The translations under genes were made by a program, and so were the position numbers. From the IMG/VR virus record IMGVR_UViG_2802429321_000001, positions 11,590-75,589 of that record: 64,000 bases of DNA; one strand, 5' to 3'. Position 1 is the first letter of the stretch. Each line of letters starts with the position of its first letter. Positions 19,876 through 44,354 of the stretch are shown here, piece after piece. Origin of the DNA: a virus (Duplodnaviria > Caudoviricetes). The notes below the pieces were generated by a model, which saw only the letters and a list, made by a program, of their open reading frames with translations, did not search any database and was not told the DNA's origin.

Positions 19876-19879
19876 CAGC

Positions 19880-29208: not shown

Positions 29209-29831
29209 TGGGCCACCTCGTCGGCCATTAGCTCGACCTTGGCCCGTGCGATAGCGAACAGCGCCCGATCTGCCTCGTGCTGTGCCTCGAACTCGCCAGA
29301 CAGCGCATGGTCGGACAGCCGCCAGTACCGTGCCTCCTCTGCCTCTTGCCGCTCCAGCAGTTTCAGCACGTTGATCAGTGCGTCAAGCGTGGCCCACGTG
29401 CCGTCAAGAAGCAGCGGCTGGCCGTCCTTGCAGGTCGACCATGCGTAGCTTTGGAGGCTGATGATGCGCAGGGACGCTCGCCGGTCGTAGAACGCTGCCT
29501 TGTAGAACACGGCACACCGCTTCCGGCCGTGCTCGTCGATGATGTCGGACCACACGCCGTGGCCGTTCGACTGCTTCGACCAGCCCGCCGGGAGTCGCGC
29601 GTACTGGAACAGCGGGTCGCCATCAACTGCGGGGCCGAGAGTGAACCCGAGTCCGATCAGGCTCTCCTCGGTGCCGCCGCGGATGTCTGTTGGGATGACC
29701 TCGGAGGCGACGAACTCGCGCTGGCCTTGAGCCTCCATGTTGGTGATGTACCTGTCCGAGCCTGGATCAGCGCGGGCGGCGAGGAAGTGCAGTAGAGGGT
29801 CGCGGTTGGTGGTGTTCTCAGGCGTGGTCAC
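29205..29831 (-). CDS. Conserved actinophage hypothetical protein
   Basis: LPAGWSKQSNGHGVWSDIIDEHGRKRCAVFYKAAFYDRRA motif. Confidence 0.7.
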   Translation of the reverse strand: MTTPENTTNRDPLLHFLAARADPGSDRYITNMEAQGQREFVASEVIPTDIRGGTEESLIGLGFTLGPAVDGDPLFQYARLPAGWSKQSNGHGVWSDIIDEHGRKRCAVFYKAAFYDRRASLRIISLQSYAWSTCKDGQPLLLDGTWATLDALINVLKLLERQEAEEARYWRLSDHALSGEFEAQHEADRALFAIARAKVELMADEVAQ

Positions 29832-30892
29832 TGTCCTGCTCCCCACACTGGGATCTTGACGGGTGCGTCGGCGGTTGGCGCGCTGCGGAGCTTGATGCCG
29901 GGATCGCTGGGTCCGTACACGTAGCTGACGGGCTGCGGTGCGGTCGCTGGTAGCCGGTCGCGGGTGACGCAGCGCGGGTCAGCGAAGACCTGCGGCGAGT
30001 TGGCCATACGCAACCACGAGTTGTTGTCGAACCACGCGATGGCGCCAACGAGCTTCGGGTAGGTCTTCGCGAGGGCGTCCCGCAGGATTCGCGTGTCCCA
30101 GTAGGCGGGGGTCGTGTCCGCGTTACTGGACGGCCCGAACTCGAACAGCAGAGCGGGCTTGCCGGTACCGACTAAGGCGGTGTAGTCGCCGCTGTTGGCG
30201 AACGTCACCTTCGTGGGGTCAGGCAGGTACAGGCTCGCGCCCACGACCTGCGCGTCCGGGGTGAGGCCGTACAGGATCGGCGAGTACCACGACATCGCCC
30301 CCGACCATGCGGGGATCACGTTCGGGCAAGCACCGATCACGCGGCCCATTAGGTCTGTCCACAGTGCCTTCACCCCAGCCTCGGAGCGTGCCGGGTTCGT
30401 GTTGTCCCGGCCCCACACGAACCAGCTTCCGCCAGCCTCGTGGAATGGCCGGAAGATCACCGGCGCATCCGAGGGCAGGGCGTGGATGTAGTCGATGACC
30501 CGCTGCGCCACCCGCAGGTACCGCGCCCGCGCTGTGCTCGTACCCGATAGGACACTGGTCAGGTCCGGTTTCGCCGTGTTCGTGTTGGCGACCCACGCTG
30601 ACCCGATGGACTGGTCACTGCCCCACAGGTTCGGCATGTGCATGCAGGCCGCGATCAAGCCGCCTTGCTGGGCGTGGGTGGTGGCGATCTTCTGGGCACC
30701 TGGGTTGAGGGCGATGCTGGAACTGTCGTTGTCGCCGACGGGGATGTTGACGCCGAGGATCGCGGGCGGCTTCGCGATGTCGAGCAACTGCGCTGCGGTT
30801 GGGGTCCGGTCGTCGCTGGGTAGCTGCTGCCCGGCGAGCCACGCGTTGCCACGGATGGCGGTCAGGTACGGGACAACGTCGGCGGCCTTCAC
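29828..30892 (-). CDS. Glycoside hydrolase family 26 (beta-mannanase-like)
   Basis: CMHMPN, VIFRPFHEAGGSWFVWG (acid/base Glu), LLFEFG (nucleophile). Confidence 0.82.
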   Translation of the reverse strand: MKAADVVPYLTAIRGNAWLAGQQLPSDDRTPTAAQLLDIAKPPAILGVNIPVGDNDSSSIALNPGAQKIATTHAQQGGLIAACMHMPNLWGSDQSIGSAWVANTNTAKPDLTSVLSGTSTARARYLRVAQRVIDYIHALPSDAPVIFRPFHEAGGSWFVWGRDNTNPARSEAGVKALWTDLMGRVIGACPNVIPAWSGAMSWYSPILYGLTPDAQVVGASLYLPDPTKVTFANSGDYTALVGTGKPALLFEFGPSSNADTTPAYWDTRILRDALAKTYPKLVGAIAWFDNNSWLRMANSPQVFADPRCVTRDRLPATAPQPVSYVYGPSDPGIKLRSAPTADAPVKIPVWGAGQ

Positions 30893-31575
30893 ACGCTCAC
30901 CTCCTCGTAGGTGGCCTGGAAAATGTCATCTCGGCACGGATAGAACTCGCCCTTGACGCCCCGGATGATCCAGTCGCCGAAGTTGGCGTGCATGACGTCT
31001 TCGAGGGTGCGGATTGCGATGGTGTGCGGGATGTCGCAGTCGTTCGTTGCGCACCTGTCGGTGTTGGTGCAGTAGTAGCAGTAGTAGTTCGCGCGTCCAC
31101 CGTTGGCCAGGACCCAGTCGATGATCGGAATCGTGCCTTCAGCGGTTCCGTCCCACCGCATGGCCTGGATCTCAACGGGCTTATTGCGGTATGTCCGTGC
31201 GTTTATCTTCGCTGCGCGTTCGAGGATGATCTGCGCGACCTGGAGTGCGGCGAGGTCTTCGTCAAGGATCGGGCCGTCCCAGCTGAACTGGCCTCTGAGC
31301 GCCGTGCCTCGAAGCCATGCTTCGATGCGGGACGCCATGAACGGAGACATCAAGGCAATCCACCGCTGATCGGCGTCGTTCGGAGGCCAGTGCTCCGCCT
31401 CGGCTTTGAGCACGTTCATCGGATGCAGTGGTGTTCCCGCGATGTCCTGCGGGTGCACGAGCTCAACTGAGTCGCCCCAGTGCTGCCACTCCCACGGTCC
31501 AGGGGTCGCCTTGCCAGCCAGCTCGGCAAGCAGGTCTGCGGCTTTGGCGAGGATGTCCTGCGGGCTGTCAGCCAC
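30889..31575 (-). CDS. Fusion: Ead/Ea22-like N-terminus plus KPVEIQA...GDWIIRGVKGEFYPC domain
   Basis: LAGKATPGPWEW at N-terminus; widespread phage C-terminal motif; start re-called. Confidence 0.65.
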   Translation of the reverse strand: MADSPQDILAKAADLLAELAGKATPGPWEWQHWGDSVELVHPQDIAGTPLHPMNVLKAEAEHWPPNDADQRWIALMSPFMASRIEAWLRGTALRGQFSWDGPILDEDLAALQVAQIILERAAKINARTYRNKPVEIQAMRWDGTAEGTIPIIDWVLANGGRANYYCYYCTNTDRCATNDCDIPHTIAIRTLEDVMHANFGDWIIRGVKGEFYPCRDDIFQATYEEVSV

Positions 31576-31747
31576 GACGCCCCTCCTCCGCCGTGAGCCC
31601 GAGCATGTCGAGGAGGCGTGCGCAGTCCCCGACATCCACGGCGTTTGAGGCAACCCAGCGGACCGCGGCTCGCTTCTGCTCGTCCGGGCTACCGCCTTTG
31701 ATGCTGCCCGCCAACAACTGGCCGCGTTCGTGGATGTCGCTGCTCAC
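31568..31747 (-). CDS. Small hypothetical protein
   Basis: Manual translation MSSDIHERGQLL..., 59 aa, overlap-coupled. Confidence 0.55.
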   Translation of the reverse strand: MSSDIHERGQLLAGSIKGGSPDEQKRAAVRWVASNAVDVGDCARLLDMLGLTAEEGRRG

Positions 31748-31881
31748 CGACGCCCCGCCTCAAGCTCGGCGGCACGGCGACGAACCCACCTAGCAGCAGA
31801 CGGCCAACCAGCGGACTCCAACTCGGTGGCAACCCGGCGGCGTGTCTCCAAATCAACCTGTGACTGGCTTTTGGTGTTCAC
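31744..31881 (-). CDS. Small hypothetical protein
   Basis: Manual translation MNTKSQSQVDLETRRRVATELESAGW..., 45 aa, GTGA overlaps. Confidence 0.55.
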   Translation of the reverse strand: MNTKSQSQVDLETRRRVATELESAGWPSAARWVRRRAAELEAGRR

Positions 31882-32105
31882 GTGAGCTCCTCGCTGGTGT
31901 GTCTCAGGTACCCGGCGGCCTCATGCCAGCCCTGCAAGCGGACCGGGTCGCCGCCTTGGGCGAGGCGCCGGTCGGCTTCGGTGTCGATGAGAGCGGCGTC
32001 GTGGAGGCGGATGTCGGTGACGCGTCTCCCGACGATGCGGGCGACGGCTGCGGCGTGTGGTTCGTCCAGTTCGCGACGGTCGTCGTGGCCTGGGTGGGTG
32101 GTCAC
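31878..32105 (-). CDS. Small hypothetical protein
   Basis: RBS GGAGG; first gene left of the divergent intergenic region. Confidence 0.55.
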   Translation of the reverse strand: MTTHPGHDDRRELDEPHAAAVARIVGRRVTDIRLHDAALIDTEADRRLAQGGDPVRLQGWHEAAGYLRHTSEELT

Positions 32106-32298
32106 GGTTGCCTCCGTTTGGGTTGGCGGCTGGCCCGGATGGTGGCGAAGTGGCGTCAGGGTATGTCGCTTGCACCGTGTGGGTGATTCTTGTGGCGGGT
32201 TTGTTGTGGGGTGTGTCGGGTGATTTTTGGACGCCAGTGCCTGCTATTCCGGCCCGTTCCGGACTCGGTCGGTTTGAGCGGGTTTGAACCGGGCTCAT

Positions 32299-32317
32299 GT
32301 TGTGGTGAGACCACAAC
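32299..32317. promoter_or_regulatory. Inverted repeat (candidate operator) in divergent intergenic region
   Basis: GTTGTGGT-GAG-ACCACAAC. Confidence 0.45.
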
Positions 32318-32392
32318 GTCACGATTCCCTGTCGATCTCCAACCGCCCGCAAGGCGCTTTTCGAAAACTGAAAGAAGTGATCTACTGCGCCC

Positions 32393-32698
32393 ATGACCGA
32401 CGACGCCGACATCCCCGCCAACGTCCTGGAGGAGCTGGTGGCCGCACTCCAAACCACCCCCAACCCCACCCTCCTCAACGTCAGCGCAGAACTCGCCACA
32501 GCAGACGATGAAGAACTCTGCGAACTGGGAAAACGCGTCGCCCGATTCCGCCGCAACGCCAGCGCCGCACTCGGCTGGCTCGCCGCCGAATGCTACGCCC
32601 GCGGCATCAGCTGGCCCCTCATCGCCGAACAATTCGATGTCCCCCTGGCGACGATCCACGGCTACGCGGCCCCGTTTGTCCGAGCGAGGGAGTCCTGA
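32393..32698 (+). CDS. Small HTH-like protein
   Basis: ARGISWPLIAEQFDVPLATIHGY. Confidence 0.6.
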   Translation: MTDDADIPANVLEELVAALQTTPNPTLLNVSAELATADDEELCELGKRVARFRRNASAALGWLAAECYARGISWPLIAEQFDVPLATIHGYAAPFVRARES

Positions 32699-32701
32699 GC
32701 C

Positions 32702-33166
32702 ATGAGCATCCTGGGGAACCTCCGCAGTACCAGGCCAGCGCCGGGCGATGACCCGTGGCGCCTGCACTGCGCGGCACACGAACTCGGGCACATGCTCGTC
32801 TGGCAGGCATTCAGTTTCGGGATCGCCGGAGTCACGGTGACTGGTTTCGGTGACCAGGTAGAGGGCTGGACGCACCTCACCGACCAGGGCAAGAACCTCA
32901 CCAGTCCGGAGCGTTGCCGCCTCTACCTCGTGGGTCTGCTCGCCGGGCGTGAAGCGGACATGCGGTGGGCCCGGCACTCGCGGCGCCCGTTCCAGGAGAA
33001 GCACAGCAAGTGGGACCTGCGGGAGTTTCAGAGGATCCACCGTCACCCGTGGGTCTGTGACATCACTGTGAACGTGCTTCGAGCCCAAGCGCACGACGCG
33101 ATCGCCTGCCACTGGCCGCAGATCGTGCGGATGGCGCCGAGCCTGGCACGCAAGGGGAGCGTGTAG
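32702..33166 (+). CDS. Stand-alone HExxH Zn-peptidase (M41-like domain), paralog 1
   Basis: AAHELGH...LLAGREAD...WDL. Confidence 0.7.
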   Translation: MSILGNLRSTRPAPGDDPWRLHCAAHELGHMLVWQAFSFGIAGVTVTGFGDQVEGWTHLTDQGKNLTSPERCRLYLVGLLAGREADMRWARHSRRPFQEKHSKWDLREFQRIHRHPWVCDITVNVLRAQAHDAIACHWPQIVRMAPSLARKGSV

Positions 33167-33168
33167 CT

Positions 33169-33627
33169 GTGAAGGACACCCTGTGGAAACGTGGCTACGA
33201 AAGCACGACAGGTCTTGACCAGCATCGGCTCCGTATCGCCGCACACGAACTCGGTCACATGGTGGCCTGGCAGGAACTTGGCCTGCGAGTCGTCTCTACG
33301 CAGGTGTGGGGACACGGCGAAGCATCCGAAGGATTCACCAAGCTCGACGGCGGCAAACTCCGCACCAGGGACGACTACTACACGTACCTCGTGGGCCTGG
33401 TCGCTGGGCGTGAGACTGACCTGCGGTGGAGCGAGCTGCACCGGATGCCGATCCGGCCCCAGAACTGGGCGCGGGACATGAACGAGTTCTCACGGCTTCG
33501 CAACGAGCGTGTCATCCGCGACGTCACTGACGCCCACTTCGCTGCTGAGGCGCGCCGACTGGTCCTGGCTGCCTGGTCACATATCAAGTCGCTGGCCCCT
33601 GGGTTGGCACGCAAGGGGAGTGTGTAG
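33169..33627 (+). CDS. Stand-alone HExxH Zn-peptidase (M41-like domain), paralog 2
   Basis: AAHELGH...LVAGRETD...RDM; identical C-terminus LARKGSV to paralog 1. Confidence 0.7.
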   Translation: MKDTLWKRGYESTTGLDQHRLRIAAHELGHMVAWQELGLRVVSTQVWGHGEASEGFTKLDGGKLRTRDDYYTYLVGLVAGRETDLRWSELHRMPIRPQNWARDMNEFSRLRNERVIRDVTDAHFAAEARRLVLAAWSHIKSLAPGLARKGSV

Positions 33628-33629
33628 CC

Positions 33630-34418
33630 GTGAAGGACTTTCTGGGGCGTCTTCGTGGTGACGGCTGGGTCAGCGTCGCCAAGTTCGCGGGCACGGCCGT
33701 CGTCGCCGCGGTAGCGCTCGCAGTGTCTGCTGTGCAGTTGGTCAAGCTTGCTGGGCAGGTCCACATCGACGACGCCTTGCGATGGACCCTTCCGGTCACC
33801 CTGGACGTGGGTGGCGTGGTTGCCACCGTGGTGTGGGCTAAAGGGGGCGGGTCTGCCCAGAAGTGGGGCAAGGGCATCGCGATCATGCTGCTGCTGGAAT
33901 CCGTGGTAGGCAACGTGATCTCACACCTGCTCGACGCGGGCATCATCCAGATGACAGGCAAGCGGGGCACGCTCCTGATCATTTGCGTGAGCGCGATCTA
34001 CCCACTGAACCTGTCCGCGATGGTGCACCTGATCGTGTCGTCCTCGGACCGCGTGAAGAAGGCTGTCCCGAAGCACGCAAAGCAGCCGGAACCGCGCAGG
34101 ACCGAGGCCATCCGGGAGTCCGTCAAGCCCGCGGTGAAGCCGGAGCCCGCTCCCACGGCACTGGAGCGCAAGCCCATCGAGACCGCGAAGCCCAAGAACC
34201 TTGTCGAACTCACCACCGCAGGCAGTAAGCGGGAACAAGGTCGGGCGTGGTTCATGGAGCAGGTCTTCGTCCACGACCGGAACCCGGACGAGATCACCGC
34301 CTCCGAGGTCGACGCACAGATCGAGACCAACGCCTACGCCAAGAAGCACATCCAGGCGTGGCGGGCTGAAGCATTCGCCGCCATCAAGGCCACGCCCACC
34401 GCAGTGGCCGGGAACTGA
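33630..34418 (+). CDS. DUF2637 / Spd-like membrane protein
   Basis: About 4 TM helices (LPVTLD, SVVGNVISH, YPLNLSAMVHL), then a charged Pro-rich tail. Confidence 0.7.
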   Translation: MKDFLGRLRGDGWVSVAKFAGTAVVAAVALAVSAVQLVKLAGQVHIDDALRWTLPVTLDVGGVVATVVWAKGGGSAQKWGKGIAIMLLLESVVGNVISHLLDAGIIQMTGKRGTLLIICVSAIYPLNLSAMVHLIVSSSDRVKKAVPKHAKQPEPRRTEAIRESVKPAVKPEPAPTALERKPIETAKPKNLVELTTAGSKREQGRAWFMEQVFVHDRNPDEITASEVDAQIETNAYAKKHIQAWRAEAFAAIKATPTAVAGN

Positions 34419-34429
34419 GGGATACCGCC

Positions 34430-34567
34430 ATGAACCCGATGATCACCGTTGCCGCGCTGGTTGCCCTGGCCGTGATGGTGTTCACCAAGAAGACCTCCAC
34501 CCCGCTCGTACTGTGCTCGGCCGCGGTAGGCGCTGTCCTGGCTGTCGCCTGGGTCGGTGCGCGGTGA
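34430..34567 (+). CDS. 45-aa two-TM protein (Spd-like)
   Basis: Manual translation MNPMITVAALVALAVMVFTKKTSTPLVLCSAAVGAVLAVAWVGAR. Confidence 0.65.
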   Translation: MNPMITVAALVALAVMVFTKKTSTPLVLCSAAVGAVLAVAWVGAR

Positions 34568-35796
34568 AACGAACCCGTGTCAAGCCGTCCCTGACGATCT
34601 GGGATGTCACGTGGATCGTGACGTACTGGTCGTTGAGGCAGTCCGGCAAAGCCATCGTGTGGACGGGAAAGAAAGCCGCGATCCACACTGGCCGGCTCGC
34701 GAAATCGACGGCGAAGCCTATCGGGGCGGGCTTGCAGAACCGGGTGGCGCTGGTGTCGTCACGGGCCAAGGAGCGGGCCGAGTTCGGGTTTTGGACTTCG
34801 ATGGTCGAGACCCTGGATGGTGTCCGGATCCCGGCGTGGAGCGTCGGGTCCTGGCTCGACCAGCACGATGGCCCCGCGGCGGACCCAACCACGTTCAGTG
34901 GCCAGGAACGGCGATCCCACGAACCAGTGCGTGCCACCGCGGAACGCCTGGACCGGCCCGCGGCGACACCACTTGCTGGGCGTCGCGGCAAGAAGCTGAA
35001 GCCGCCATCACGGGATGCTGCTGTGAAGTGCCGGTGCGGGTGGACCGGGATCGAACGCGACTACGCCCGGCACGTTATCGCCTGTGCCCGCAAGGATCTG
35101 CACGCGACCCGCGCCGTACAGGTCGCGCTCGCCGAACACGCTGACCGTTTCATCAAGAAGCCAACCAACGCCCCCGGTGTTGGACAGAAGGGAACTGGCA
35201 TGAACCTCCGCGACTGGACCAAGTCCGCGATCATTCTGACCCGCCCGAACATCCACCATCCCGCCGAGCTGGCGACCTGGCTGCAGCTCGCAGCCAAGGG
35301 CACGGACCCGTTGGCGACCGCGCTGCGGACGCTGGCGGACGGGTTCGTGCGCGCCCAGGTGGACGCGGAGATCGTGCAGCCAGTGGAGCGTGCCGCGGTC
35401 GCCGCCGGCCACATCAAGGGCGCGTTCGTCACCGCCGCCAAGGTCTCGATCAACCTGTACGCGACGATCCCCGTGTTCGTGTCGAAGAACACCGGGACGA
35501 TGAGCGACCCCAGCGCCTGGTCGAAGTCCGCGGAGATCCTGGCCGAGCCGTTCATCGACAGTCCGCGGCAGTTGGGGGCGTGGCTGCTGGAGGCCGCGGC
35601 CCCGAAGGAGTTGCCGCAGAACATCCTGATCCTGCTGCTGGACTACCTGAAGGACGCCAAGGTCCACGCGTCGATCATCACTGCGCTCGAGGGCGCGATC
35701 GCGGATGCCCGCATGATCTGCATGGCACTGAAGCAGGCTGGAGACGAGGCAACGTCCCTGTATGGCGCGGTGCCTGAGTTCAAGGCCGCGGGCTGA
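34564..35796 (+). CDS. Transfer-region protein: basic N-terminus with CRC..H..C motif plus two ~95-aa helical repeats (internal start possible at 35200)
   Basis: GTGA overlap with upstream gene; repeats W-KSA-IL--P-I--P--L--WL...LY--IP-F. Confidence 0.6.
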   Translation: MKRTRVKPSLTIWDVTWIVTYWSLRQSGKAIVWTGKKAAIHTGRLAKSTAKPIGAGLQNRVALVSSRAKERAEFGFWTSMVETLDGVRIPAWSVGSWLDQHDGPAADPTTFSGQERRSHEPVRATAERLDRPAATPLAGRRGKKLKPPSRDAAVKCRCGWTGIERDYARHVIACARKDLHATRAVQVALAEHADRFIKKPTNAPGVGQKGTGMNLRDWTKSAIILTRPNIHHPAELATWLQLAAKGTDPLATALRTLADGFVRAQVDAEIVQPVERAAVAAGHIKGAFVTAAKVSINLYATIPVFVSKNTGTMSDPSAWSKSAEILAEPFIDSPRQLGAWLLEAAAPKELPQNILILLLDYLKDAKVHASIITALEGAIADARMICMALKQAGDEATSLYGAVPEFKAAG

Positions 35797-35829
35797 CCTC
35801 ACCTACCAACAACACTTGGGGAGAAGACT

Positions 35830-36433
35830 GATGTTTCTGCCGGATCAGTGGGCCAATGCCCGCAAGGTTGCTGCCCTGTGCGGCGAAACCCTCACCCACC
35901 CTGGCCAGTTGAAGGCGTTCTTTGCCTCCGCCGCGACGGGTGGTGGCGTGCTCGCAACCAGCTTGGCCACGCTCGCGAAGAAGCTGGAGGAGTGCGACGT
36001 CGACAAGAGCGTCCTGTCCCACGTGAACGCTGCACTCGGCGCAGCCTGGGCCTTCGAAAAGGACCTCATGGAGGCGGCGTCGCGATCGGGGACTCACTAC
36101 CGGTCGATCCCGAAGTTCCGAGCGACTGCCGCCGCCATACCTGACCTGTCGGGGTGGGCTGATGGATCAGAGGTGCTGGCTGACCCGCAGATCGATCACC
36201 CCAGCGAGCTGGGGGTGTGGTTGACGACCGCGTCGGAGAAGGGATCACTCCTGGCTCACGCTCTGGGGCGGCTGGACTCACGCCTGACTAGCGCCGGCGT
36301 GGCCCCAGCGATCGTGAACTGCGTGGGGCGTGCCCAGGATGATGCGGCGAACCTCGGTAACGCGCTGACGGAAGCTGGCAAGCAGGCAGACGCGCTGTAC
36401 GGGCAGATCCCTGATTTCCGGAAGGTGTCCTGA
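35830..36433 (+). CDS. Transfer-region protein, two more copies of the helical repeat (TraA position)
   Basis: HPGQL..HYRSIPKF and HPSELGVWL..LYGQIPDF; RBS GGAGAAG; start approximate. Confidence 0.6.
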
Positions 36434-36434
36434 G

Positions 36435-38384
36435 ATGGCGATCGATCTGCAGGCACGCCGCCAATTGGAGGCCCGCCTGGACCAGGGTGGTGCGTGGGTA
36501 TCGCGGCACCGGCACGCGGTGGGCCCGATGCTGGTCGCCCTGGGCGTGACTGGGATCGCTGCGGGCGCGTGGAGTTTGGCGGTGGGGCGCGGTTGGGGGT
36601 GGACGCAGTGGGCGGTGACCGCGGTCGCCGTGTTCGTGTGGATCCTGCACTTCTCGGCGGTCCATGAGCTGCCGAACCCGCGGGAGAAGCAGTACGCGCG
36701 GGCCGCGTTCACCGCGGCCTGTGCGTACGCGGCAGCCGTGGTGTGGTGGGGCCCTGTCCTGTGGCTGCTGGTCGTGGGCGGCGTGGTCACCGTGTGCCTG
36801 GGCATCCCGTGGTACGTGCACCGGCGGGTCCGGATCTCGGTGAGCGTGGAGAAGGAGATCGCCGCCTGGGGCGACGGGTCCGCGGTCGGGTTGCCGGGCG
36901 TGGAGCTGGTGCAGGCCGCGGCGAAGGCGGGCGCGGACTGGTGGTCGGCGCCGATGCGGGCGCGGGAGCGCGGCCAGTGGACGCGGAGCCAGATGCGGCA
37001 GGCCAAGGAGCGGATCGCCGCCCGCTACGGGGTGTCCGCGGAGCAGGTGCACATCACCGACCGGGATTCTGAGGGTGAGGCCCTGTTGACGGTGCACACC
37101 AGCCGGGCGGTGAAGACGCTGGAGCCGCTGCCGCTGCCGACCGAGCGGCGCCCGATCGAGGGTCCGCACGAGGTGTGCCGGTACCTGTCCGACAACAGTC
37201 CGGGCCACATCACCCTGTACGAGCCGGGCTATGGGGCTATCGATGGCGCCGGGATCGGGGTGAAGGGGTCCGGGAAGTCGTCGGAGGCGGAGCTGGTCGC
37301 TGAGATCGTGATCTCCTCCACGAACGCCCTGTTGTTCGCTGTCGACTTGAAGCCGGGCGCCCAACATTGGAAGGGCTGGGAGAACGCAACCGACATGTTC
37401 GCCCGCACCCCTGCCGAGCTGGATGTGATGCTGCAGGTGTTCGAAGTGATCTGTGAATATCGTGGTGTGCGCACCGAGGGAACCATCCACGTCCCTACCC
37501 CGACCGCCCCGCAGATCGTGTTGCTGATCGATGAGGCCGCGCTGGCGTTCTCCGACAAGGATGCGTTGACTGATTTTGATGAAGCGATGGATCGCCGGCA
37601 GGTGATCGCTAACCGGGTTGCGTTGATGGAGAAAAACACGCGCGTGTCTCGTTCATTCGGTGAATGCAAGTACATGTTCACCCAGGACGGCTACGTGGAT
37701 TCGTTCGGCAACGGGTTCATTTTCTCCGAGCTGAAGGCCGGGAACCTCGCGATCTTCCGGACCGCTGACCGGGGAGACACCGGTCAGATTCTCTCGGGAA
37801 TCGACGTGGACCCGTCCAGGTTCCCGAAGAACCAGCCTGGCACCGCGTACTGGAGTTCGTATTCCTCCGATCGTGACGAGGTGGTCCGGTTCCACAAGCG
37901 CACCGACAAGCAGATCGGGGAGTTGGTGTCCCGGTTCCCTGCGGGTGTCCCCGGGGCGCCGTCCCTGGAGCCGGGACTGCTGGACGCGATCCGGGCCCGG
38001 GTCGGGGACGCCTACGACCGTCGGTTCGAGGGACGGTCCCCTGTCCCCGGTCGTTCGGCTGTCCCCGCGTCCCCGACTGGTGTCCCCGCGGTTGTCCCCT
38101 CCGGTGTCCCCGCCGTGTCCCCAGAGGGGGGACTGCCGGACTTCGCCGCAGCGAATGCCGCGGCCGGTGTTCCCGAGGGGCCAGACCGGTTGTCCCCGGA
38201 GGAGTCCCGGGCCCGGGTCCTGGAGGCGCTGCGCGAGTTGGGGCCGGACGCGACGACGAAGGCGATCGCGGAGCGGGTTGGTCGGTCGGTGACGTTGACG
38301 CGGGCCCGGCTGAACGAGCTCGCAGCCGAGGGGTTGGCGACGTCGAAGGGCAAGCGTGAGCCGCGATGGACCGCGACGCAGTAA
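36435..38384 (+). CDS. traB: TraB/TraSA-like FtsK/SpoIIIE DNA translocase
   Basis: N-terminal TM helices, Walker A GVKGSGKS, VDLKPG, Walker B VLLIDEA, C-terminal winged helix. Confidence 0.85.
   Translation: MAIDLQARRQLEARLDQGGAWVSRHRHAVGPMLVALGVTGIAAGAWSLAVGRGWGWTQWAVTAVAVFVWILHFSAVHELPNPREKQYARAAFTAACAYAAAVVWWGPVLWLLVVGGVVTVCLGIPWYVHRRVRISVSVEKEIAAWGDGSAVGLPGVELVQAAAKAGADWWSAPMRARERGQWTRSQMRQAKERIAARYGVSAEQVHITDRDSEGEALLTVHTSRAVKTLEPLPLPTERRPIEGPHEVCRYLSDNSPGHITLYEPGYGAIDGAGIGVKGSGKSSEAELVAEIVISSTNALLFAVDLKPGAQHWKGWENATDMFARTPAELDVMLQVFEVICEYRGVRTEGTIHVPTPTAPQIVLLIDEAALAFSDKDALTDFDEAMDRRQVIANRVALMEKNTRVSRSFGECKYMFTQDGYVDSFGNGFIFSELKAGNLAIFRTADRGDTGQILSGIDVDPSRFPKNQPGTAYWSSYSSDRDEVVRFHKRTDKQIGELVSRFPAGVPGAPSLEPGLLDAIRARVGDAYDRRFEGRSPVPGRSAVPASPTGVPAVVPSGVPAVSPEGGLPDFAAANAAAGVPEGPDRLSPEESRARVLEALRELGPDATTKAIAERVGRSVTLTRARLNELAAEGLATSKGKREPRWTATQ
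37940..38200. repeat. Cluster of about 12 GTCCCC/GGGGAC hexamers (mostly GTCCCC on +)
   Basis: Counted by eye; falls in more than one codon phase. Confidence 0.8.
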
Positions 38385-38441
38385 GCCCGCTGGCGGCTCC
38401 CAGTGATGCGCCAGCAGCCTGGGAGCCGTCGTGTTGTGAAG

Positions 38442-38590
38442 CGCTTATAGGCGTGTCGAGCCGCTGATAGCGCTGGTTGAGCCGCTTATACGCGCCTGTT
38501 GTTGTCGTCCACGCGCGCACGCGCGCGCCTGCGCGTTGGGGGGCGTTTGGGCTTGAGTGCCGCTTATACGCGCCTGAGGCGCTGATAGCG
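38442..38590 (+). repeat. Five CGCT(T/G)ATA repeats in traB downstream intergenic region
   Basis: At 38442, 38462, 38483, 38561, 38580; GCCGCTTATACGCGCCTG twice. Confidence 0.75.
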
Positions 38591-38654
38591 GCTCGAACGT
38601 ACCTGTCCGAGGGTGTGCACGCCCGTGGGGTGTGCGTGGAGCGTTGGAGGCGTG

Positions 38655-39422
38655 ATGCTGGGTCGGACGCATGCAGTGTCCGGATGGTGCGCCGGGTTGG
38701 TGGTGGCGCCAGCGGTCGGTGTGCACGGGCTGGGGTCGGTGCTGCTGTTCGCCACAGTGACCGCCGGCTGGGCTCTAGCACCGGACCTGGACCACCCAGG
38801 CAGCGTGGCGACCCGGTTCGCTGGCCCGGTCACCGGGATCCTGTCGCGGGGACTGCGGGGACTGTCCGCCCGCCTGTACGCGGGGACGAAGGGGCCGCGG
38901 GACGAGGACTGGGAGGGGACACACCGGCACCTGACCCACACCCTGCTGTTCGCGGTGCTCGTGGGGGCGGGGACAGCGGTGGGGACTGCGGTGTCCCCGT
39001 GGTGGGGAGTCCTTGTCCCCGTCGCGGTGGGGACACTGCTGGCCGCGCGGGCACTCGGGGACTGGGTGCTGGTGGCGGGGACTGTCCCCGTGGCGTGGGG
39101 ACTGGTGGCGGGAGGGGACAGCGTCCTGGAGGTGTTGTCCCCGGTGCGTGGGTGGATTGGGATCGCGGTTGGCTTGGGTTGTCTGGCTCACTCTTGTGGC
39201 GATGCGCTCACATTGAGTGGCTGCCCGATCTTGTTTCCGATCCCGATTCGTGGTGAGACCTGGTTTGAGCTCGGGCCGCCGCGGGTGATGCGTTTCCGGA
39301 CGGGCGGGACACTGGAACAGTTGGTGGTGTTCCCGGCGTTCGCCGCCGCGGGAGTGATGCTGGTTCCGGGGGTGTGGCCACTGGTCGCGTCAACTATCGG
39401 TCATGTGCTGGGAGTGAGGTAG
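38655..39422 (+). CDS. Membrane metal-dependent hydrolase (YdjM-like)
   Basis: MLGRTHA, ALAPDLDH, HRHLTHTLL, LAHSCGDALT. Confidence 0.85.
   Translation: MLGRTHAVSGWCAGLVVAPAVGVHGLGSVLLFATVTAGWALAPDLDHPGSVATRFAGPVTGILSRGLRGLSARLYAGTKGPRDEDWEGTHRHLTHTLLFAVLVGAGTAVGTAVSPWWGVLVPVAVGTLLAARALGDWVLVAGTVPVAWGLVAGGDSVLEVLSPVRGWIGIAVGLGCLAHSCGDALTLSGCPILFPIPIRGETWFELGPPRVMRFRTGGTLEQLVVFPAFAAAGVMLVPGVWPLVASTIGHVLGVR
38845..39145. repeat. Cluster of about 15 GGGGAC/GTCCCC hexamers (mostly GGGGAC on +)
   Basis: Counted by eye; occurs in all three codon phases. Confidence 0.8.
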
Positions 39423-39424
39423 TC

Positions 39425-39916
39425 GTGGCGGTTGCCGTGGATGCACTGTCGGACGCGGAGTGGTTCGTGTTGAATGCTGCGGTGCATGAGGCTGGTCACC
39501 TTGTGGCGTGTATCGCCCAGGGGCTGCCTGTCGTGTTCGCGCGGGTGGAACGTTACGGGACGAGCGCGAATGCGGTGCGGGGTTTGGTCCGGGTGGATGA
39601 CGCGTTTTTGGATTCTGATCCGTTGGGGGCGGTAGTGGTTGGGGTTGCCGGGGTTGCTGCTGAGGTTGCGTGGTTGTGTCGAGAGAACTCGATGGGCCGG
39701 TCTGCTGCCCGTCGCTATGTGGGTGGTGCGGGGTGTGAGGCTGATTTGCGTCTGGTTCGAAAGTATTTGCCTCGCGCTGGTGTTGGTGAGTCGGTGGCGA
39801 GGGAGTTGGCTGAGCGGGTGGTGCGGGAGCGGTGGGGGGCGGTGCTGCGGTTGGGTGAGGCGCTGGCCGCTCGGGGGTGGCTGGATGGTGGACGGGTAGC
39901 CGCGTTGGTGCGGTGA
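39425..39916 (+). CDS. Stand-alone HExxH Zn-peptidase (M41-like domain), paralog 3
   Basis: AVHEAGH...VAGVAAE...GCEADL. Confidence 0.7.
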   Translation: MAVAVDALSDAEWFVLNAAVHEAGHLVACIAQGLPVVFARVERYGTSANAVRGLVRVDDAFLDSDPLGAVVVGVAGVAAEVAWLCRENSMGRSAARRYVGGAGCEADLRLVRKYLPRAGVGESVARELAERVVRERWGAVLRLGEALAARGWLDGGRVAALVR

Positions 39917-39923
39917 GGTGGCG

Positions 39924-39959
39924 GGCCCCCGTTTCGGCGGGGGCTTCGCTGTGTCTGGG
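39924..39959 (+). terminator. Intrinsic terminator, copy 1 of a duplicated 36-bp element
   Basis: GCCCCCG-TTTCGG-CGGGGGC then TTCGCTGTGTCT. Confidence 0.7.
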
Positions 39960-39977
39960 TTGTGGTTCACCCAGTAC

Positions 39978-40012
39978 TAGACATGTTCAACATGCTCAGC
40001 TAATCTACTCAT
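39978..40012 (+). promoter_or_regulatory. Leaderless promoter with palindromic operator
   Basis: TAGACA-17-TAATCT, 6 nt before GTG; CATGTT-C-AACATG in the spacer. Confidence 0.7.
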
Positions 40013-40357
40013 GTGAAGACGTTGGATCCGAACAGCCCCAAGCCACCATCGCAGCAGATCGCCGACGCAATCCGCGAAGCCATCCGGGGTGGCGAACTCA
40101 AGCCCGGCGACAGGCTTCCCGGACGCGCCGAACTCATGACCCACTTCGGTGTCGCCGCCGCGACCCTGAACTCCGCACTCGCCACGTTGAAGCAGGGCGG
40201 CATCCTGGTATCCCGCCAGGGATCCGGTGTGTTCGTCCGCACCGACATCGACAACCAGCACGACACCGAACCGACTGTCGACCATCTGGCGTCGATCAAC
40301 GCCCGCCTGGCCCGAATCGAACGCCACCTCGGCATCGACACCGCCGCGGAGCAGTGA
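40013..40357 (+). CDS. GntR-family regulator (KorA/TraR-like)
   Basis: QIADAIREAIRGGELKPGDRLP...FGVAAATLNSALATL...SRQGSGVFV. Confidence 0.9.
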   Translation: MKTLDPNSPKPPSQQIADAIREAIRGGELKPGDRLPGRAELMTHFGVAAATLNSALATLKQGGILVSRQGSGVFVRTDIDNQHDTEPTVDHLASINARLARIERHLGIDTAAEQ

Positions 40358-40404
40358 GCGGCACGACAGATCGATTGGCCATGAGCAGCAAGGAGGACAA
40401 CGAC

Positions 40405-40590
40405 ATGAGTGATTGGCACTGGCATGAGGCGTTACGAGGCTCTTTCGAGCAGTTTTTGGAGGCTGGGCATGACGAGGAGGAGGCGAAGCGACTGGCCCAG
40501 TGGGACACCCGCCACTGGTGGTCGGACTCGGACAGTCACGCGCTTGATCGCCTGCACCCCTGGTTGCCGCCGCATCTGCGGGACAAGTAG
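40405..40590 (+). CDS. Small Trp/His-rich protein
   Basis: RBS AAGGAGG; MSDWHWHEALRGSF... Confidence 0.6.
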   Translation: MSDWHWHEALRGSFEQFLEAGHDEEEAKRLAQWDTRHWWSDSDSHALDRLHPWLPPHLRDK

Positions 40591-40630
40591 GGGCCCAACA
40601 CCTCGGCATCGACACCACCAAGGAGGAGCA

Positions 40631-40870
40631 GTGAGCATGTTGCGCATCCCACCGAAGGCCCTGGGGGCAGGCTGGCACGAGTTCAGGTATCCGCGTCCTG
40701 CCGTGGACGAGCCGACTGATGCGTTCAAGCGAGGCGTGGAGGCTGCGGGCGCTGTCCTGCTGGCCGAGCGCATGGACCTGGTGGAGCGGGTCCTGGTGGA
40801 GCGGCTGGGCCGTTCCACAGCGGACGAGTTGATGGGCGCGATCGACATCGCACTGGAGGAGGAGCAGTGA
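40631..40870 (+). CDS. Small hypothetical protein
   Basis: RBS AGGAGGAG. Confidence 0.6.
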   Translation: MSMLRIPPKALGAGWHEFRYPRPAVDEPTDAFKRGVEAAGAVLLAERMDLVERVLVERLGRSTADELMGAIDIALEEEQ

Positions 40871-40995
40871 GCACGAGCGAGTGCATGAGCAGGGGTAGTC
40901 GGTGTTGGGATCTCGCCGACCACCTGTGTGACGACGGGCAGTACCGGTGCGGTGAGCACTGCATGTGCGGCGAGACTGAGGAGGTGACAGGGTGA
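40867..40995 (+). CDS. 42-aa Cys/His-rich protein
   Basis: Manual translation MSTSECMSRGSRCWDLADHLCDDGQYRCGEHCMCGETEEVTG. Confidence 0.55.
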   Translation: MSTSECMSRGSRCWDLADHLCDDGQYRCGEHCMCGETEEVTG

Positions 40996-41327
40996 CCGAC
41001 GATGACCTCGTGTTCGTGATCGGCTTGCTGCGGGGCGCGGTCGAGGGTGATCCGCGACAGTACTTCGGGTCCATCCGGTCCTGGGACCGGCATCAAGCGA
41101 ACGCGATCCAGTGTGGGGTGGTGGAGGTCGCCGAGGCCGTAGAGGAGGTGGATGGTCGGCCGATGGTGGTGCTGTCAGAGGTGCCGACCGAGTACGGCAA
41201 GGAGTTTTACGTCCGCCACGATCTGGGTGGTCTGCCACCGGGTCGGGCGTACATGTGGCCGCCGGAGAGGTTGTCTACCGCGATCGCGGAACTGGCCGCC
41301 ACCGAGGGGTGCGGGAAGGTGATGTGA
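40992..41327 (+). CDS. Hypothetical protein
   Basis: Overlap-coupled. Confidence 0.6.
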   Translation: MTDDDLVFVIGLLRGAVEGDPRQYFGSIRSWDRHQANAIQCGVVEVAEAVEEVDGRPMVVLSEVPTEYGKEFYVRHDLGGLPPGRAYMWPPERLSTAIAELAATEGCGKVM

Positions 41328-41431
41328 TGGCAGGACGTGCGGATCGAGACCGGATTGACCGGGGTATCCGGAATGCGATCCTCGCCGCAGACTGGGACAA
41401 GGTGATCAGTCTGGCTGAGGAGGAGCAGTGA
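41327..41431 (+). CDS. 34-aa hypothetical protein
   Basis: TGATG overlap; MAGRADRDRIDRGIRNAILAADWDKVISLAEEEQ. Confidence 0.5.
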   Translation: MAGRADRDRIDRGIRNAILAADWDKVISLAEEEQ

Positions 41432-42174
41432 GCAAGGCCGAACGGGACTGGAACGGGCTTAACCTGCGGCAGCAGGTGTATCTCCGCGCCATCTACCGCG
41501 CCGAGATGGTGCACGAACGCCGAGAGCTCGACCGCGCCCACACCGACCGCCGAATGTTCCCGCAGCACAGGCCCCGCGACGAGTGGGCGTGGCTCGTGTT
41601 CGCGATGTCCGCCCAGGCCGACTACCACCAGGCGATGATTCACAACGAGGTCAAGGCAGCCGGGGAACTTGACCAGGGCGCCGGAAGCACCCTCAAGGCC
41701 CTCGCCGACCGCGGCCTGATCGAAGTAGAGGGCGGCCACGGCCGAGGGCGCCGTGGCACCGTGGTGGAACAGATACTGGTCAAGCTCACCACCGCCGGAC
41801 GCGCCGCTGCCCGCGTCGACAACCCGGCCCGGGTGAAACCACCCAAGGGGCTGCTCTCCGAGTGGCTGTGGGAAAAGCTCGCCGCCATCGCCGTGGCCGA
41901 GCCGGACGGCCTGGATGTGGACAAGGCGGGTGGCTGGACCTGGCCCCATCACCTCGGCCCTGAGCGCAAGGGTCTCATCGAGGTGCGGACCCACGTGGAG
42001 CAGGCGCCGCCTGGGCACTGGCTCTGGAAGGCCATCGAGGAGGGCCGGATGCCCCCGGAGTCGGTGATGTTCAAGAGGCGCCGCTGGCACCTCACCGCAG
42101 CCGGGCGCGAGCACATCGTGCAGCACCTCAACACGTACCGCGCAATTTTTCCAGACGTGATCGTCAGCGAGTAG
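41428..42174 (+). CDS. Tandem winged-helix-like protein of actinomycete mobile elements
   Basis: LNLRQQVYLRAIY, GAGSTLKALADRGLI...LTTAGRAAAR, WHLTAAGREH. Confidence 0.65.
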   Translation: MSKAERDWNGLNLRQQVYLRAIYRAEMVHERRELDRAHTDRRMFPQHRPRDEWAWLVFAMSAQADYHQAMIHNEVKAAGELDQGAGSTLKALADRGLIEVEGGHGRGRRGTVVEQILVKLTTAGRAAARVDNPARVKPPKGLLSEWLWEKLAAIAVAEPDGLDVDKAGGWTWPHHLGPERKGLIEVRTHVEQAPPGHWLWKAIEEGRMPPESVMFKRRRWHLTAAGREHIVQHLNTYRAIFPDVIVSE

Positions 42175-42189
42175 CAGCACGGACCGCGT

Positions 42190-42225
42190 GGCCCCCGTTT
42201 CGGCGGGGGCTTCGTCGTGTCTGGG
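42190..42225. terminator. Terminator copy 2, between convergent genes
   Basis: 34/36 identical to 39924-39959. Confidence 0.7.
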
Positions 42226-42226
42226 G

Positions 42227-42490
42227 TTAGGCGTCTGCCCAGCGGATGTCGGGTGCGAAGTTGTTCTCGAACGCCTCTGGGCCTCGCGGCTCGCCGGTGC
42301 CGTGCTGGGTAATGAGCTCGGTGGCGATTTCCCAGATGCTGCCCGGCGGGGTGACGACGCCCGCGGCGACGGCGGGCTGGAGGTTGTCCAGTTGGATGCG
42401 GGCGAGGTCGAGGATGAGGGGCCACTCGGACTTGGGGACCCCATGCTGGTCGGCGGCCTGGATCCACTGCTGCTCGGTCATGGGGGCCAT
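42227..42490 (-). CDS. Small hypothetical protein
   Basis: Start re-called (MAPMTEQQW...). Confidence 0.5.
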   Translation of the reverse strand: MAPMTEQQWIQAADQHGVPKSEWPLILDLARIQLDNLQPAVAAGVVTPPGSIWEIATELITQHGTGEPRGPEAFENNFAPDIRWADA

Positions 42491-42560
42491 CCTCACTCGG
42501 GAGATGCAGTGATCGCCATGGGGTCTGATCCAACACACGCTGGGGCCGTGTCGAGCGAAT

Positions 42561-42607
42561 GCAGGGAGGGGGTTGCTTTTAAAGCAGGGAGGGGGTTTAC
42601 TTACCTC
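42561..42607 (+). promoter_or_regulatory. Candidate promoter/operator of the ORF-HTH-repeat operon
   Basis: GCAGGGAGGGGGTT twice (42561, 42584); palindrome TGCTTT-T-AAAGCA; TTGCTT -35-like; weak -10. Confidence 0.5.
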
Positions 42608-42880
42608 ATGACGACGACCACCACCGCCCGCCGCATCTGCCGCAGCGTCAACCACCACGCCGCCGCCAGCCACACCCGCAACGCCTCCCTCGGCGGCATC
42701 GAGGTCTACTTCGACGCCATCGGCCACGAGGTCACCTGGACCGAATCCGGCCACGTCATCCCCGACAGCGGCCTGCCCTTCGAGTACACCTACCGCTGGA
42801 CCGTGCGCCCCGATCACCGCACCACCGCCGCTACCGTCCAGGACGAGCTCGGCCGCTACACCGTCGGCGTGATCGCGTGA
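42608..42880 (+). CDS. 90-aa hypothetical protein (candidate Acr)
   Basis: ATG after promoter; codon usage strongly C-ending; coupled to HTH gene. Confidence 0.65.
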   Translation: MTTTTTARRICRSVNHHAAASHTRNASLGGIEVYFDAIGHEVTWTESGHVIPDSGLPFEYTYRWTVRPDHRTTAATVQDELGRYTVGVIA

Positions 42881-43395
42881 CCCACATCGAGGACTATCTG
42901 CACCTCAACCGCAAGGCCCTAGATGAACTCCCGCCAGCCGAGCGGATCGCGGTCCTCGCGGACCTAGCCCAGCGAGCGAACAAGTGGCTGGCTGACGCGC
43001 GCTCGGAAGAGATCGACAGGCTGAGGTCGGAACTCGGCGGCGACCAGGCTGTCGCTGAGGCGCTCGGCATCTCCCGGCAGACCCTGGCTGATCTCGGCGA
43101 CGGACCAGCGGTCCAACTCGGCAACGGCGCATGGGCGCGTCCCCGCCTGCTCAAGCGGGGATGCGAGCTGCTGCTGAACTACCTGCCGCCAAGCTCCCAG
43201 CCCCGGGACGTGTTCCAGGCCCTGGAGATCCTCAGTCGCCGTGGACGCCCAGACCCGAAGCAGCTGCAAGCCGCCGCGCATCGTCTGGCCCGGTCAGCGA
43301 GGCTTTCGCCGACGTTGGGGAACGAGATGCCCCAGGACGAGATGCGGGTTCTGGTGCGGGCTTTGACCCACGCGGCGGAGATCAGCAGTCAGTAG
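42877..43395 (+). CDS. HTH protein (Aca-like position)
   Basis: GGDQAVAEALGISRQTLADL. Confidence 0.7.
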   Translation: MTHIEDYLHLNRKALDELPPAERIAVLADLAQRANKWLADARSEEIDRLRSELGGDQAVAEALGISRQTLADLGDGPAVQLGNGAWARPRLLKRGCELLLNYLPPSSQPRDVFQALEILSRRGRPDPKQLQAAAHRLARSARLSPTLGNEMPQDEMRVLVRALTHAAEISSQ

Positions 43396-43405
43396 TACGC
43401 TCGCG

Positions 43406-43538
43406 CCGTTCTCCCCGCACGGGGAGGTGGGTCGGTTCCATTGAGTCGAAACCGAAGCTAGTTCTCCACGTCGGTGGAGGTGGGTCGTACAGTGTGCTAC
43501 CACGATCCGGAGTTCTCCACACTGGTGGAGGTCGAGTC
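43406..43538 (+). CRISPR. Type I-E-like mini-array: three 29-nt repeats, 24- and 22-nt spacers, no cas genes in window
   Basis: NNGTT-CTCC(C/A)C-N4-G(G/T)GGAG-GTGGGTCG at 43406, 43459 and 43510 (third handle degenerate); same 5+6+4+6+8 geometry as type I-E repeats. Confidence 0.72.
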
Positions 43539-43545
43539 ATAGCAG

Positions 43546-43580
43546 AGCCCCAGGTTCCCGCCTGGGGCTTGTTACTGTTT
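43546..43580 (+). terminator. Intrinsic terminator closing the repeat array
   Basis: AGCCCCAGG-TTCCCG-CCTGGGGCT then TGTTACTGTTT. Confidence 0.75.
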
Positions 43581-43735
43581 GCAGTCCGGCGCCCCCGGGG
43601 AGGATCCGGGGGCGCTTGTCCGAGCGGGGGCGAGGACACTGTGGACATCGCCTGACCAGCGGAGATCGTTACTCCGTACGGCTGGCTTGCTTCAAGATTT
43701 GGAACAGTTTGGAGCAACTTGGAGTTGACACGGGG

Positions 43736-43767: not shown

Positions 43768-43781
43768 TGGACTGGTGGTTA

Positions 43782-44340: not shown

Positions 44341-44354
44341 GGCGGTCTCCTTCA

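Follow-up and report, generated by a model that had tools for sequence, protein, structure and literature searches.

A TraB-like translocase block with opposed motif arrays in a Kutzneria albida prophage

The DNA considered here, a stretch of 64,000 nucleotides called the window below, covers bases 11590-75589 of the 75,589-bp IMG/VR record IMGVR_UViG_2802429321_000001, a provirus with a CheckV completeness of 100%, and it contains a block of genes built around a TraB-like DNA translocase. The host is Kutzneria albida, a mycelial member of a filamentous genus of soil actinomycetes in the Pseudonocardiaceae. Strain DSM 43870 has one circular chromosome of 9,874,926 bp with 70.6% GC, and the paper describing that genome nowhere mentions phages (PMC4210621); the prophage is at about 65-66% GC. 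A gene call based on GC at third codon positions (GC3) places the block on the plus strand, from 32393 to a terminator at 43545-43570, with minus-strand genes on either side. An original prediction, made from the letters of the sequence, saw here a Streptomyces-type conjugation module carried by an intact siphophage of a mycelial actinomycete. Its components (the TraB-like ATPase, a DUF2637 protein, a 45-aa protein with two transmembrane (TM) helices, two helical proteins, a membrane hydrolase and a GntR regulator) are all in place, as are the TerL, portal, capsid, tail and GH25 lysin genes of a siphophage, and the host is indeed mycelial. The proposed start of the block stands; its end, set at 40357, moves to the terminator, and three HExxH proteins were missing from the list. 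The genes of the block are:

32393-32698, plus strand: 101-aa protein, first gene of the block (GC3 gene call; no family)
32702-33166, plus strand: predicted stand-alone FtsH-type (M41-like) HExxH protein, copy a, 154 aa, with a HELGH motif
33169-33627, plus strand: HExxH paralogue b, 152 aa, tandem duplicate of copy a (38% identity; DNA repeats D1 and D2)
33630-34418, plus strand: 262-aa membrane protein of the DUF2637 family (Pfam DUF2637 at 23.9 bits, cut-off 22.8; phrog_733, E 8e-9)
34430-34567, plus strand: 45-aa peptide with two TM helices by hydropathy (residues 1-19 and 26-44)
34564-35796, plus strand: 410-aa protein, N-terminal Cys/His region followed by two helical repeats of about 100 aa
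35762-36433, plus strand: 223-aa paralogue with two copies of the same repeat of about 100 aa (BLASTP against the 410-aa protein 34%, E 2e-25)
36435-38384, plus strand: traB, putative TraB-like membrane-anchored FtsK-type double-stranded DNA (dsDNA) translocase with a winged helix-turn-helix (wHTH) at its C-terminus, 649 aa
38613-39422, plus strand: ydjM, YdjM-type membrane metal-dependent hydrolase, likely start about 38653 (Pfam YdjM, E 9e-18; phrog_20744, E 1e-42)
39374-39916, plus strand: third HExxH paralogue (HEAGH), at most 180 aa, start uncertain, overlapping the end of ydjM (by alignment to the other copies)
39924-39959, plus strand: terminator-like hairpin of 36 nt (GGCCCCCGTTTCGGCGGGGGC...), with a 94% identical copy at 42190-42225 (direct repeat D8)
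40013-40357, plus strand: GntR-family wHTH regulator, 114 aa, YtrA-like (Pfam GntR, E 3e-18; NCBIfam matches cover the HTH only)
40409-43395, plus strand: small genes without a family

Most junctions in the block overlap or lie 1-12 nt apart, which suggests translational coupling, as reported for spd operons (PMC4447253). The stop codon of the 45-aa peptide overlaps the start of the 410-aa gene (GTGA); a frame-specific switch in GC3 sets this start at 34564, and not further upstream as first proposed.

The TraB-like ATPase

The anatomy of the 649-aa protein is that of a membrane-anchored motor with a terminal DNA-binding fold. Hydropathy marks segments at residues 28-46, 59-77 and 106-124, and the AlphaFold2 (AF2) model has helices at 26-51, 56-77, 82-105 and 109-128 with a predicted local distance difference test score (pLDDT) above 88, that is, a membrane anchor of about four TM helices. 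Next come the Walker motifs, A as GVKGSGKS (near residue 275) and B as LLIDEA (near 362); G280, K281 and E367 are invariant among 69 relatives and D366 nearly so. After the motor, the model (pLDDT 88.7 overall) shows a disordered linker (540-583) and a wHTH of three helices and a two-strand wing (588-647), where Pfam HTH_24 also matches (residues 594-634, E 5e-5). The ATPase can be said on this model to carry the C-terminal wHTH of TraB-type proteins, and DNA binding is predicted from it.

This is a rare family: in a complete HMMER search of 1.84 billion representatives, 88 relatives came up, 20 of them at E <1e-30; two scans of genome contigs and a single-protein scan of viral contigs gave none. 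Among 50,697 phage records, searches with the block as DNA and as protein found no TraB or DUF2637 match, including tblastn with the ATPase and with the DUF2637 protein, and among 72,556 plasmid records tblastn with the ATPase found two weak matches, the best at 25-29% identity. Pairwise BLAST between the ATPase and pIJ101 Tra is not significant. Profiles reach further: the family profile matches pIJ101 Tra with 86.5 bits (E 2e-27), a plasmid FtsK with 73 bits over the motor only, and a Streptomyces plasmid TraB-like gene with 196 bits over its full length, and a DUF2637 gene lies upstream of the latter. A YdjM-like gene following this plasmid traB was also considered and was dropped, with no support from hidden Markov models (HMMs).

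As to which branch of the superfamily the ATPase belongs to, NCBIfam plasmid_TraB (NF041214) is its sole ATPase-family match. A profile of 30 relatives compared with solved proteins ranks EccC (3e-20), FtsK (2e-17) and the conjugation coupling protein TcpA (3e-17) close together; Foldseek with the model puts TcpA and FtsK on top (E ~1e-10), and Pfam FtsK_SpoIIIE is matched by 12 of the 30 relatives. Of the 69 relatives, 57 match NCBIfam plasmid_TraB (best 1e-58), 39 EccC and 14 FtsK. The family is therefore supported, at the level of sequence, as leaning to plasmid TraB over chromosomal FtsK. We read the ATPase as a divergent TraB-like pump of the FtsK superfamily, TraB-like by architecture without being an equivalog of curated TraB.

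Repeat arrays at the traB-ydjM gap

The 3' end of traB, the gap that follows and ydjM hold two kinds of repeats:

37947-38197, plus strand: WGTCCCCG array A, 12 copies (10 plus, 2 minus), at the traB 3' end, mostly in disordered-linker codons (residues 534-565)
38385-38612: traB-ydjM gap, 228 bp
38442-38587, plus strand: five direct CGCTKATA 8-mers over 146 bp of the gap, with spacings of 20, 21, 78 and 19
38508-38542: GC-rich core CCACGCGCGCRCGCGCGCGCCTGCGCGWTGGG (CCACGCGCGCRCGCGCGCGCCTGCGCG) between the 8-mers, near-identical at 17826-17858 (33 nt) of the metagenome contig L008
38848-39142, minus strand: WGTCCCCG array B, 15 copies (11 minus, 4 plus), inside ydjM

GTCCCC is the most clustered k-mer of the window: 27 of its 64 copies fall within 37947-39142, where 0.77 would be expected (Poisson 3e-32). 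Counted from the oriented copies, the consensus WGTCCCCG has its W in 23/27 and its final G in 18/27. The copies are spread over all codon phases. When synonymous codons were resampled 2000 times with the window's own usage, array A (12 observed) gave 1.5 +/- 1.1 copies and array B (15 observed) 2.3 +/- 1.4, and no resample was as high in either case; coding does not account for the motif. In ydjM the copies make use of GGG, a rare Gly codon, and fall where the protein is least conserved; the ydjM homologues of L008 and of the Saccharomonospora phage PIS 136 have no GTCCCC at all. Polarity flips over the gap, from 10 plus and 2 minus copies before it to 4 plus and 11 minus after it (Fisher p 0.006). 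A similar bias with a different word is found in the DUF2637-like/ydjM region of L008 (15500-17250), where the Gly codon GGA is unusually frequent, CTCCTGGT occurs 7 times against 0 elsewhere and CCTGGAGC 10 times against 9. The enrichment of CTGGAG in that region, merely 6-fold, was rejected as strong in its own right; the 8-mer CTCCTGGT is the sharper signal.

The second set is also local: five of the six CGCTKATA copies in the window lie in the gap, 0.92 being expected in 64 kb, and none of 100 shuffles reached six. These 8-mers are candidates for a transfer locus that acts in cis (clt) or for an operator. The clt loci described in the literature consist of direct repeats, 5-9 bp long and arrayed within the 3' end of the tra gene or next to it: that of pWTY27 has 16 bp inside traA plus 159 bp adjoining, with 7-bp repeats, that of pJV1 has nine 9-bp repeats, and in that of pSVH1 helix 3 of the wHTH recognises 8-bp motifs (PMC3583192, PMC4447253). 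By analogy, both the WGTCCCCG arrays and the CGCTKATA 8-mers are candidate clt repeats, their binding being a prediction. The arrays would fit a clt in location and type; their size of 1.2 kb and their two polarities are unlike any clt described.

The GC-rich core between the 8-mers is near-identical in L008 despite protein identities of only 34-55%. We rejected it as a TraB-specific site, as it also occurs in an unrelated viral contig of 71.6% GC without TraB (L012, where a similar (CG)n-rich partial copy at 18315-18340 is flanked by TGTCATG inverted repeats). The GTCCCC arrays were likewise rejected as replication iterons, a separate iteron set being present in the replication initiator gene.

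Related loci, partner genes and phage backbone

The set is not confined to this prophage. L008 is a 61-kb metagenome contig, compared here over 21.6 kb, and is the same sequence fragment as L003, which IMG/VR classes as viral. It has homologues of TraB (34%), YdjM (55%), the helical-repeat protein (18290-19291, matching the 410-aa protein) and the DNA-binding protein encoded at 26993-27733 of the window; a DUF2637-like membrane protein was recognised by eye, with no Pfam, tblastn or phmmer match. There the set is dispersed among a DnaB-helicase-like protein and an ORF with an HNH motif (both by eye) and a GH25 gene. When the HNH ORF was compared by tblastn with the window protein of 62121-63386, only C-terminal residues 290-376 of that HNH-domain protein aligned. 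The GH25 muramidase-like gene (9196-9912) stands directly upstream of the traB homologue, and, if coupled to the pump, an enzyme that cuts the wall would be well placed to let DNA through. In the isolated Saccharomonospora phage PIS 136, the family profile matches a TraB-like gene with 117 bits, and YdjM is 45% identical.

Neither direct att-like repeats nor a rep/int pair was found flanking the block, either of which would have pointed to an inserted element, and its GC is that of the remaining phage. [quoted passage not shown] Given the lack of flanking repeats, the matching composition and the homologues in L008/L003 and PIS 136, the cassette appears from sequence to be a conserved feature of a phage group of filamentous actinomycetes and not a recent AICE insertion. 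This bears on an alternative that we consider improbable, in which the block is a captured plasmid or AICE transfer cassette, inert or decaying, with no part in phage spread. Such a passenger would explain why the block is reversed relative to the phage backbone, why its content (Tra, membrane proteins, GntR) is AICE-like without a neighbouring rep or int, and why a 36-nt repeat around the GntR cassette suggests modular insertion. Decay, however, is not what the genes look like: every ORF is intact with coding-type GC3, catalytic residues are retained and the motif arrays are maintained against codon preference. Nor does the block show att-like flanks or a compositional break, and another phage-like locus has kept the set, differently arranged, at 34-55% identity; close relatives of known context (L003, L008) are phage-like and not plasmid-borne.

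The DUF2637 protein has 3-4 TM helices and then a hydrophilic tail by hydropathy, and is a candidate Spd-like partner. The helical-repeat proteins match no family and have no relatives outside this system, and an Atlas search with the 410-aa protein gave no usable match. The three HExxH proteins are predicted from structure models to have the FtsH M41 protease-domain fold without the AAA module: for copy a (AF2 pLDDT 86.6) the top Foldseek matches are nearly all FtsH, AFG3L2 and YME1 protease domains (TMq at most 0.70), and the HExxH profile aligns with the FtsH zinc site, the sequence-profile match being weak (E ~0.5). This fold result led us to reject an identity as ImmA/IrrE-type anti-repressor proteases. 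For paralogue b a word search of 5.8 billion proteins found no homologue beyond copy a. The 101-aa protein has no Pfam or PHROG match, with a non-significant HTH hint (E 0.005). Control by a GntR protein of the Kor/TraR type had been predicted, and here the expectation failed: with 114 aa the regulator is YtrA-like and not HutC, a class defined by a UTRA effector domain and 240-260 aa; its similarity to the HTH of pIJ101 KorA is 37% over 67 aa. Rfam (31000-44500) and sigma-70 promoter scans found nothing.

The two hairpin copies (39924-39959 and 42190-42225) bracket the GntR gene and four small genes, like a separate cassette with duplicated terminators. Within it the junction GAGGAGGAGCAGTGAGC is present three times (40599-40633, 40856-40880 and 41417-41441), and 40599-40628 repeats, at 87% identity, the stretch that codes for the 3' end of the GntR gene (40325-40354). 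Both features point to serial duplication of small genes, and the gene call at 40409-40870 may merge two ORFs.

Elsewhere in the record the features that matter for the argument are:

record bases 1-1209, 10.4-11.6 kb before the window: tyrosine integrase, 402 aa, its ORF reaching the record end
26993-27733, minus strand: 246-aa Zn-ribbon DNA-binding protein (phrog_1568, E 2e-26)
59431-60483, minus strand: phage replication initiator, DnaD-like (phrog_8064, E 1.5e-59; phrog_3171, E 1e-39)
59922-60058, within the initiator gene: palindromic GGATAGCC / GGCTATCC iterons, 4 of the 5 window copies

The integrase is the only one in the whole record, and the repeats at 59922-60058 probably mark the phage replication origin. 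The statement that the module lacks its own rep or integrase is correct for the block and not for the element, which has both. ParA (AAA_31) and ParB_N, searched across the whole record, were not found. In both L008 and L003 a homologue of the Zn-ribbon protein is encoded 1.4-1.5 kb upstream of traB. The late genes on the minus strand encode TerL, a portal, an HK97-type capsid protein (41% identity to the capsid of the Mycobacterium phage Eureka group), a tail tube that includes an fn3 domain, and a tape measure of 1365 aa, with an HNH gene adjoining TerL. To the left of the window lie the GH25 lysin, a PLD protein, glycan-modifying genes and the integrase; the right arm (43.8-64 kb, minus strand) holds the initiator and HNH genes. 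HNH-domain proteins number three, at 19066-19995 (by TerL), 60468-61790 (440 aa) and 62121-63386 (421 aa), the large pair lying in the early region. Two minus-strand matches to HTH_17 (excisionase/MerR-type), one of 27.6 bits at record 6969-7094 and one of 22.5 bits at window 26670-26804, are candidate excision directionality factors or regulators by sequence. Glycan genes occur on both sides of the virion module, with GT1, PIG-L deacetylase and GH26 in the window (22609-24060, 24708-25529 and 29828-30892) and GT2, epimerase, methyltransferase and GH114 to its left (record 1870-6990), and may modify the virion or the cell surface.

Known systems and possible roles

The closest parallels are the TraB/Tra proteins of Streptomyces conjugative plasmids and AICEs (pSVH1 TraB, pIJ101 Tra, pWTY27 TraA), which share the membrane anchor, the FtsK-type motor and the C-terminal wHTH, short direct repeats in or near the 3' end of the gene (in the plasmids, clt), and a locus with a nearby GntR gene, membrane partners and translational coupling. 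In contrast to these, the window ATPase is very divergent and is carried by a 75.6-kb tailed prophage; its partners are YdjM, three predicted FtsH-type domains and novel helical-repeat proteins where the plasmids have SpdA, SpdB and KilB, and its 27 motifs form two opposed arrays over 1.2 kb where published clt loci span 50-175 bp (PMC3583192). AICEs such as pSAM2, SLP1 and pMEA300 (PMC2440964) share a tyrosine integrase, a replication function, an FtsK-like Tra, Spd-like membrane genes and GntR in one integrated element. An AICE, however, unites integration by att, Rep and Tra in a module of 9-24 kb, whereas here int, rep and tra are separated by tens of kilobases in an element of 75.6 kb that also has a full virion and lysis module, and the initiator is phage-type and DnaD-like, not RepSA, RepAM or Prim-Pol; the view that this is no complete AICE is upheld. 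No Nudix Pif was recognised in the block; Pif is the Nudix protein that keeps pSAM2 from redundant transfer (PMC2440964). PIS 136 has a NUDIX-domain ORF, annotated as hypothetical, at 12564-12914, between its TraB-like and YdjM genes.

Several phages come nearer. PIS 136 (JX006077), from another host in the Pseudonocardiaceae, encodes a TM-anchored TraB-like ATPase (PIS_041, 'FtsK Spo IIIE protein') and a YdjM-type membrane hydrolase (PIS_065); unlike in the window, the two genes are 12 kb apart, and in this genome no homologues of the other block proteins were found, nor an enriched motif around ydjM. The Streptomyces element pZL12 reportedly is an extrachromosomal plasmid prophage. Like the window element it is a tailed phage genome with a tra locus, as cited in PMC3583192, where transfer of pZL12/phiZL12 (Zhong et al. 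2010) is said to require the tra gene and two neighbours. The window element differs from it in being integrated through a tyrosine integrase, in lacking ParA/ParB and in its Pseudonocardiaceae host; as a provirus with a terminal integrase, the record does not have the partition functions of a plasmid prophage. The phages phiC31 and VWB encode SpdB2 homologues, for which a role in spreading phage DNA has been suggested (PMC4447253). They resemble the window element as temperate actinophages with a multi-TM membrane protein of spread type, a candidate one in the window; according to PMC4447253 they have the Spd-like protein only, whereas the window adds a full TraB-like pump and candidate cis sites. 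FtsK/SpoIIIE-like genes have been annotated, and not studied, in PIS 136, P1312 (PMC4569894), Jaresh and AndoPrime (PMC13587820). Literature searches gave us no account of a TraB-clt cassette in an integrated prophage.

What, then, could the block do? We propose that it is a phage-resident TraB-type system that moves dsDNA and forms a conserved part of a phage lineage, a reading that we hold about as readily as we doubt it. Within it, a pump that spreads phage DNA between compartments during infection or induction is possible, if somewhat doubtful, and a true mating-type transfer of the prophage between mycelia is unlikely. Pumping, DNA binding, transfer and their timing are read here from anatomy. 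The 649-aa protein would assemble into a membrane-anchored FtsK-like ring, whose C-terminal winged helix could dock on cis repeats, either the opposed WGTCCCCG arrays or the five CGCTKATA 8-mers, or both. The ring would then pump the excised or replicating phage genome through hyphal cross-walls or into neighbouring Kutzneria hyphae without virions. The DUF2637 protein, the 45-aa peptide, the two helical-repeat proteins and the YdjM hydrolase might act as envelope partners analogous to Spd proteins, and the short GntR as a Kor-like brake. The integrase and replication initiator of the phage could establish the DNA in the recipient, and since they would serve this function the prophage would combine virion genes with the set of functions found in an AICE. 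In a bolder and unlikely version of the proposal, the opposed WGTCCCCG arrays would be orienting sequences, like the FtsK-orienting polar sequences (KOPS), which steer the pump relative to a site in the traB-ydjM gap; the whole 75-kb integrating genome would be exported as dsDNA, an AICE-phage hybrid spreading without virions within one mycelium or from one to another and so evading defences at receptors and the surface, and the motif would co-vary with the recognition helix of the pump, L008 using CTCCTGGT/CCTGGAGC.

A number of observations weigh against the proposal. Searched alone in Pfam, the ATPase matches only through its C-terminal HTH and not FtsK_SpoIIIE, and its match to plasmid_TraB (E 2.6e-6, 26.2 bits) is far below the cut-off of 800; that model also gives weak matches in 9 of 14 control genomes, so a single match of this kind is not decisive. 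The DUF2637 protein, predicted as the Spd-like membrane partner, has no detectable BLAST similarity to pIJ101 SpdB, which itself is not a DUF2637 protein, and the GntR regulator is without the effector domain found in KorA, TraR and KorSA. Array A consists in part of a 12-nt tandem repeat within the Pro-rich linker (D6), and either repeat set would be a candidate for binding by the wHTH. An excised 75-kb prophage would normally be expected to go lytic. Virulent Streptomyces phages, too, carry FtsK-like genes (PMC13587820), which speaks against prophage mating as a general role.

This last point leads to another possibility, rather unlikely in our view, that the pump serves a different phage function: superinfection exclusion, interference with host segregation or sporulation septa, or resolution and segregation of the phage genome, the arrays being KOPS-like loading or orienting sites. 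The FtsK/SpoIIIE-like genes of virulent Streptomyces phages have been discussed in relation to host development (PMC13587820), the FtsK-like gene of the Thermobifida phage P1312 has been read as 'DNA segregation' (PMC4569894), the convergent polar motifs recall the logic of KOPS, and the block lies on the strand opposite all lytic genes with its own terminator at the end. Yet the closest curated family is plasmid TraB and not FtsK, and a DUF2637 protein is among the partners, as on a Streptomyces plasmid. Moreover, an integrated prophage has no need of a segregation pump, the record has no ParA/ParB, and a PADLOC scan of 10 block proteins found no defence family. More improbable still is a role like that of Hfr (high frequency of recombination) strains, in which the pump, acting in cis from the integrated prophage, would mobilise chromosomal DNA of the host or other elements, to the benefit of the lysogen and not of the phage. 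Streptomyces conjugative elements are known to mobilise chromosomal DNA (PMC11571958), and an integrated clt would turn the chromosome into a substrate; the arrays, however, are concentrated within the prophage, and the module is conserved with phage genes, not host genes.

The element would stand apart from its precedents by being integrative, by its host in the Pseudonocardiaceae, by a rare TraB subfamily, by a different set of partners and by its polar motif arrays; the surprise is tempered by pZL12 (2010) and by the published suggestion on phage SpdB2 homologues. The case is open to direct test, as K. albida DSM 43870 is a culturable type strain and the candidate cis sites have been placed with single-base precision, and the polar arrays could provide a natural system for studying how TraB-type pumps choose and orient their substrate. 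If the proposal is true, the boundary between prophage and AICE would be blurred. A working module would give temperate phages of filamentous actinomycetes a second, virion-free route of spread, one that would be independent of receptors and might evade defences at the cell surface.

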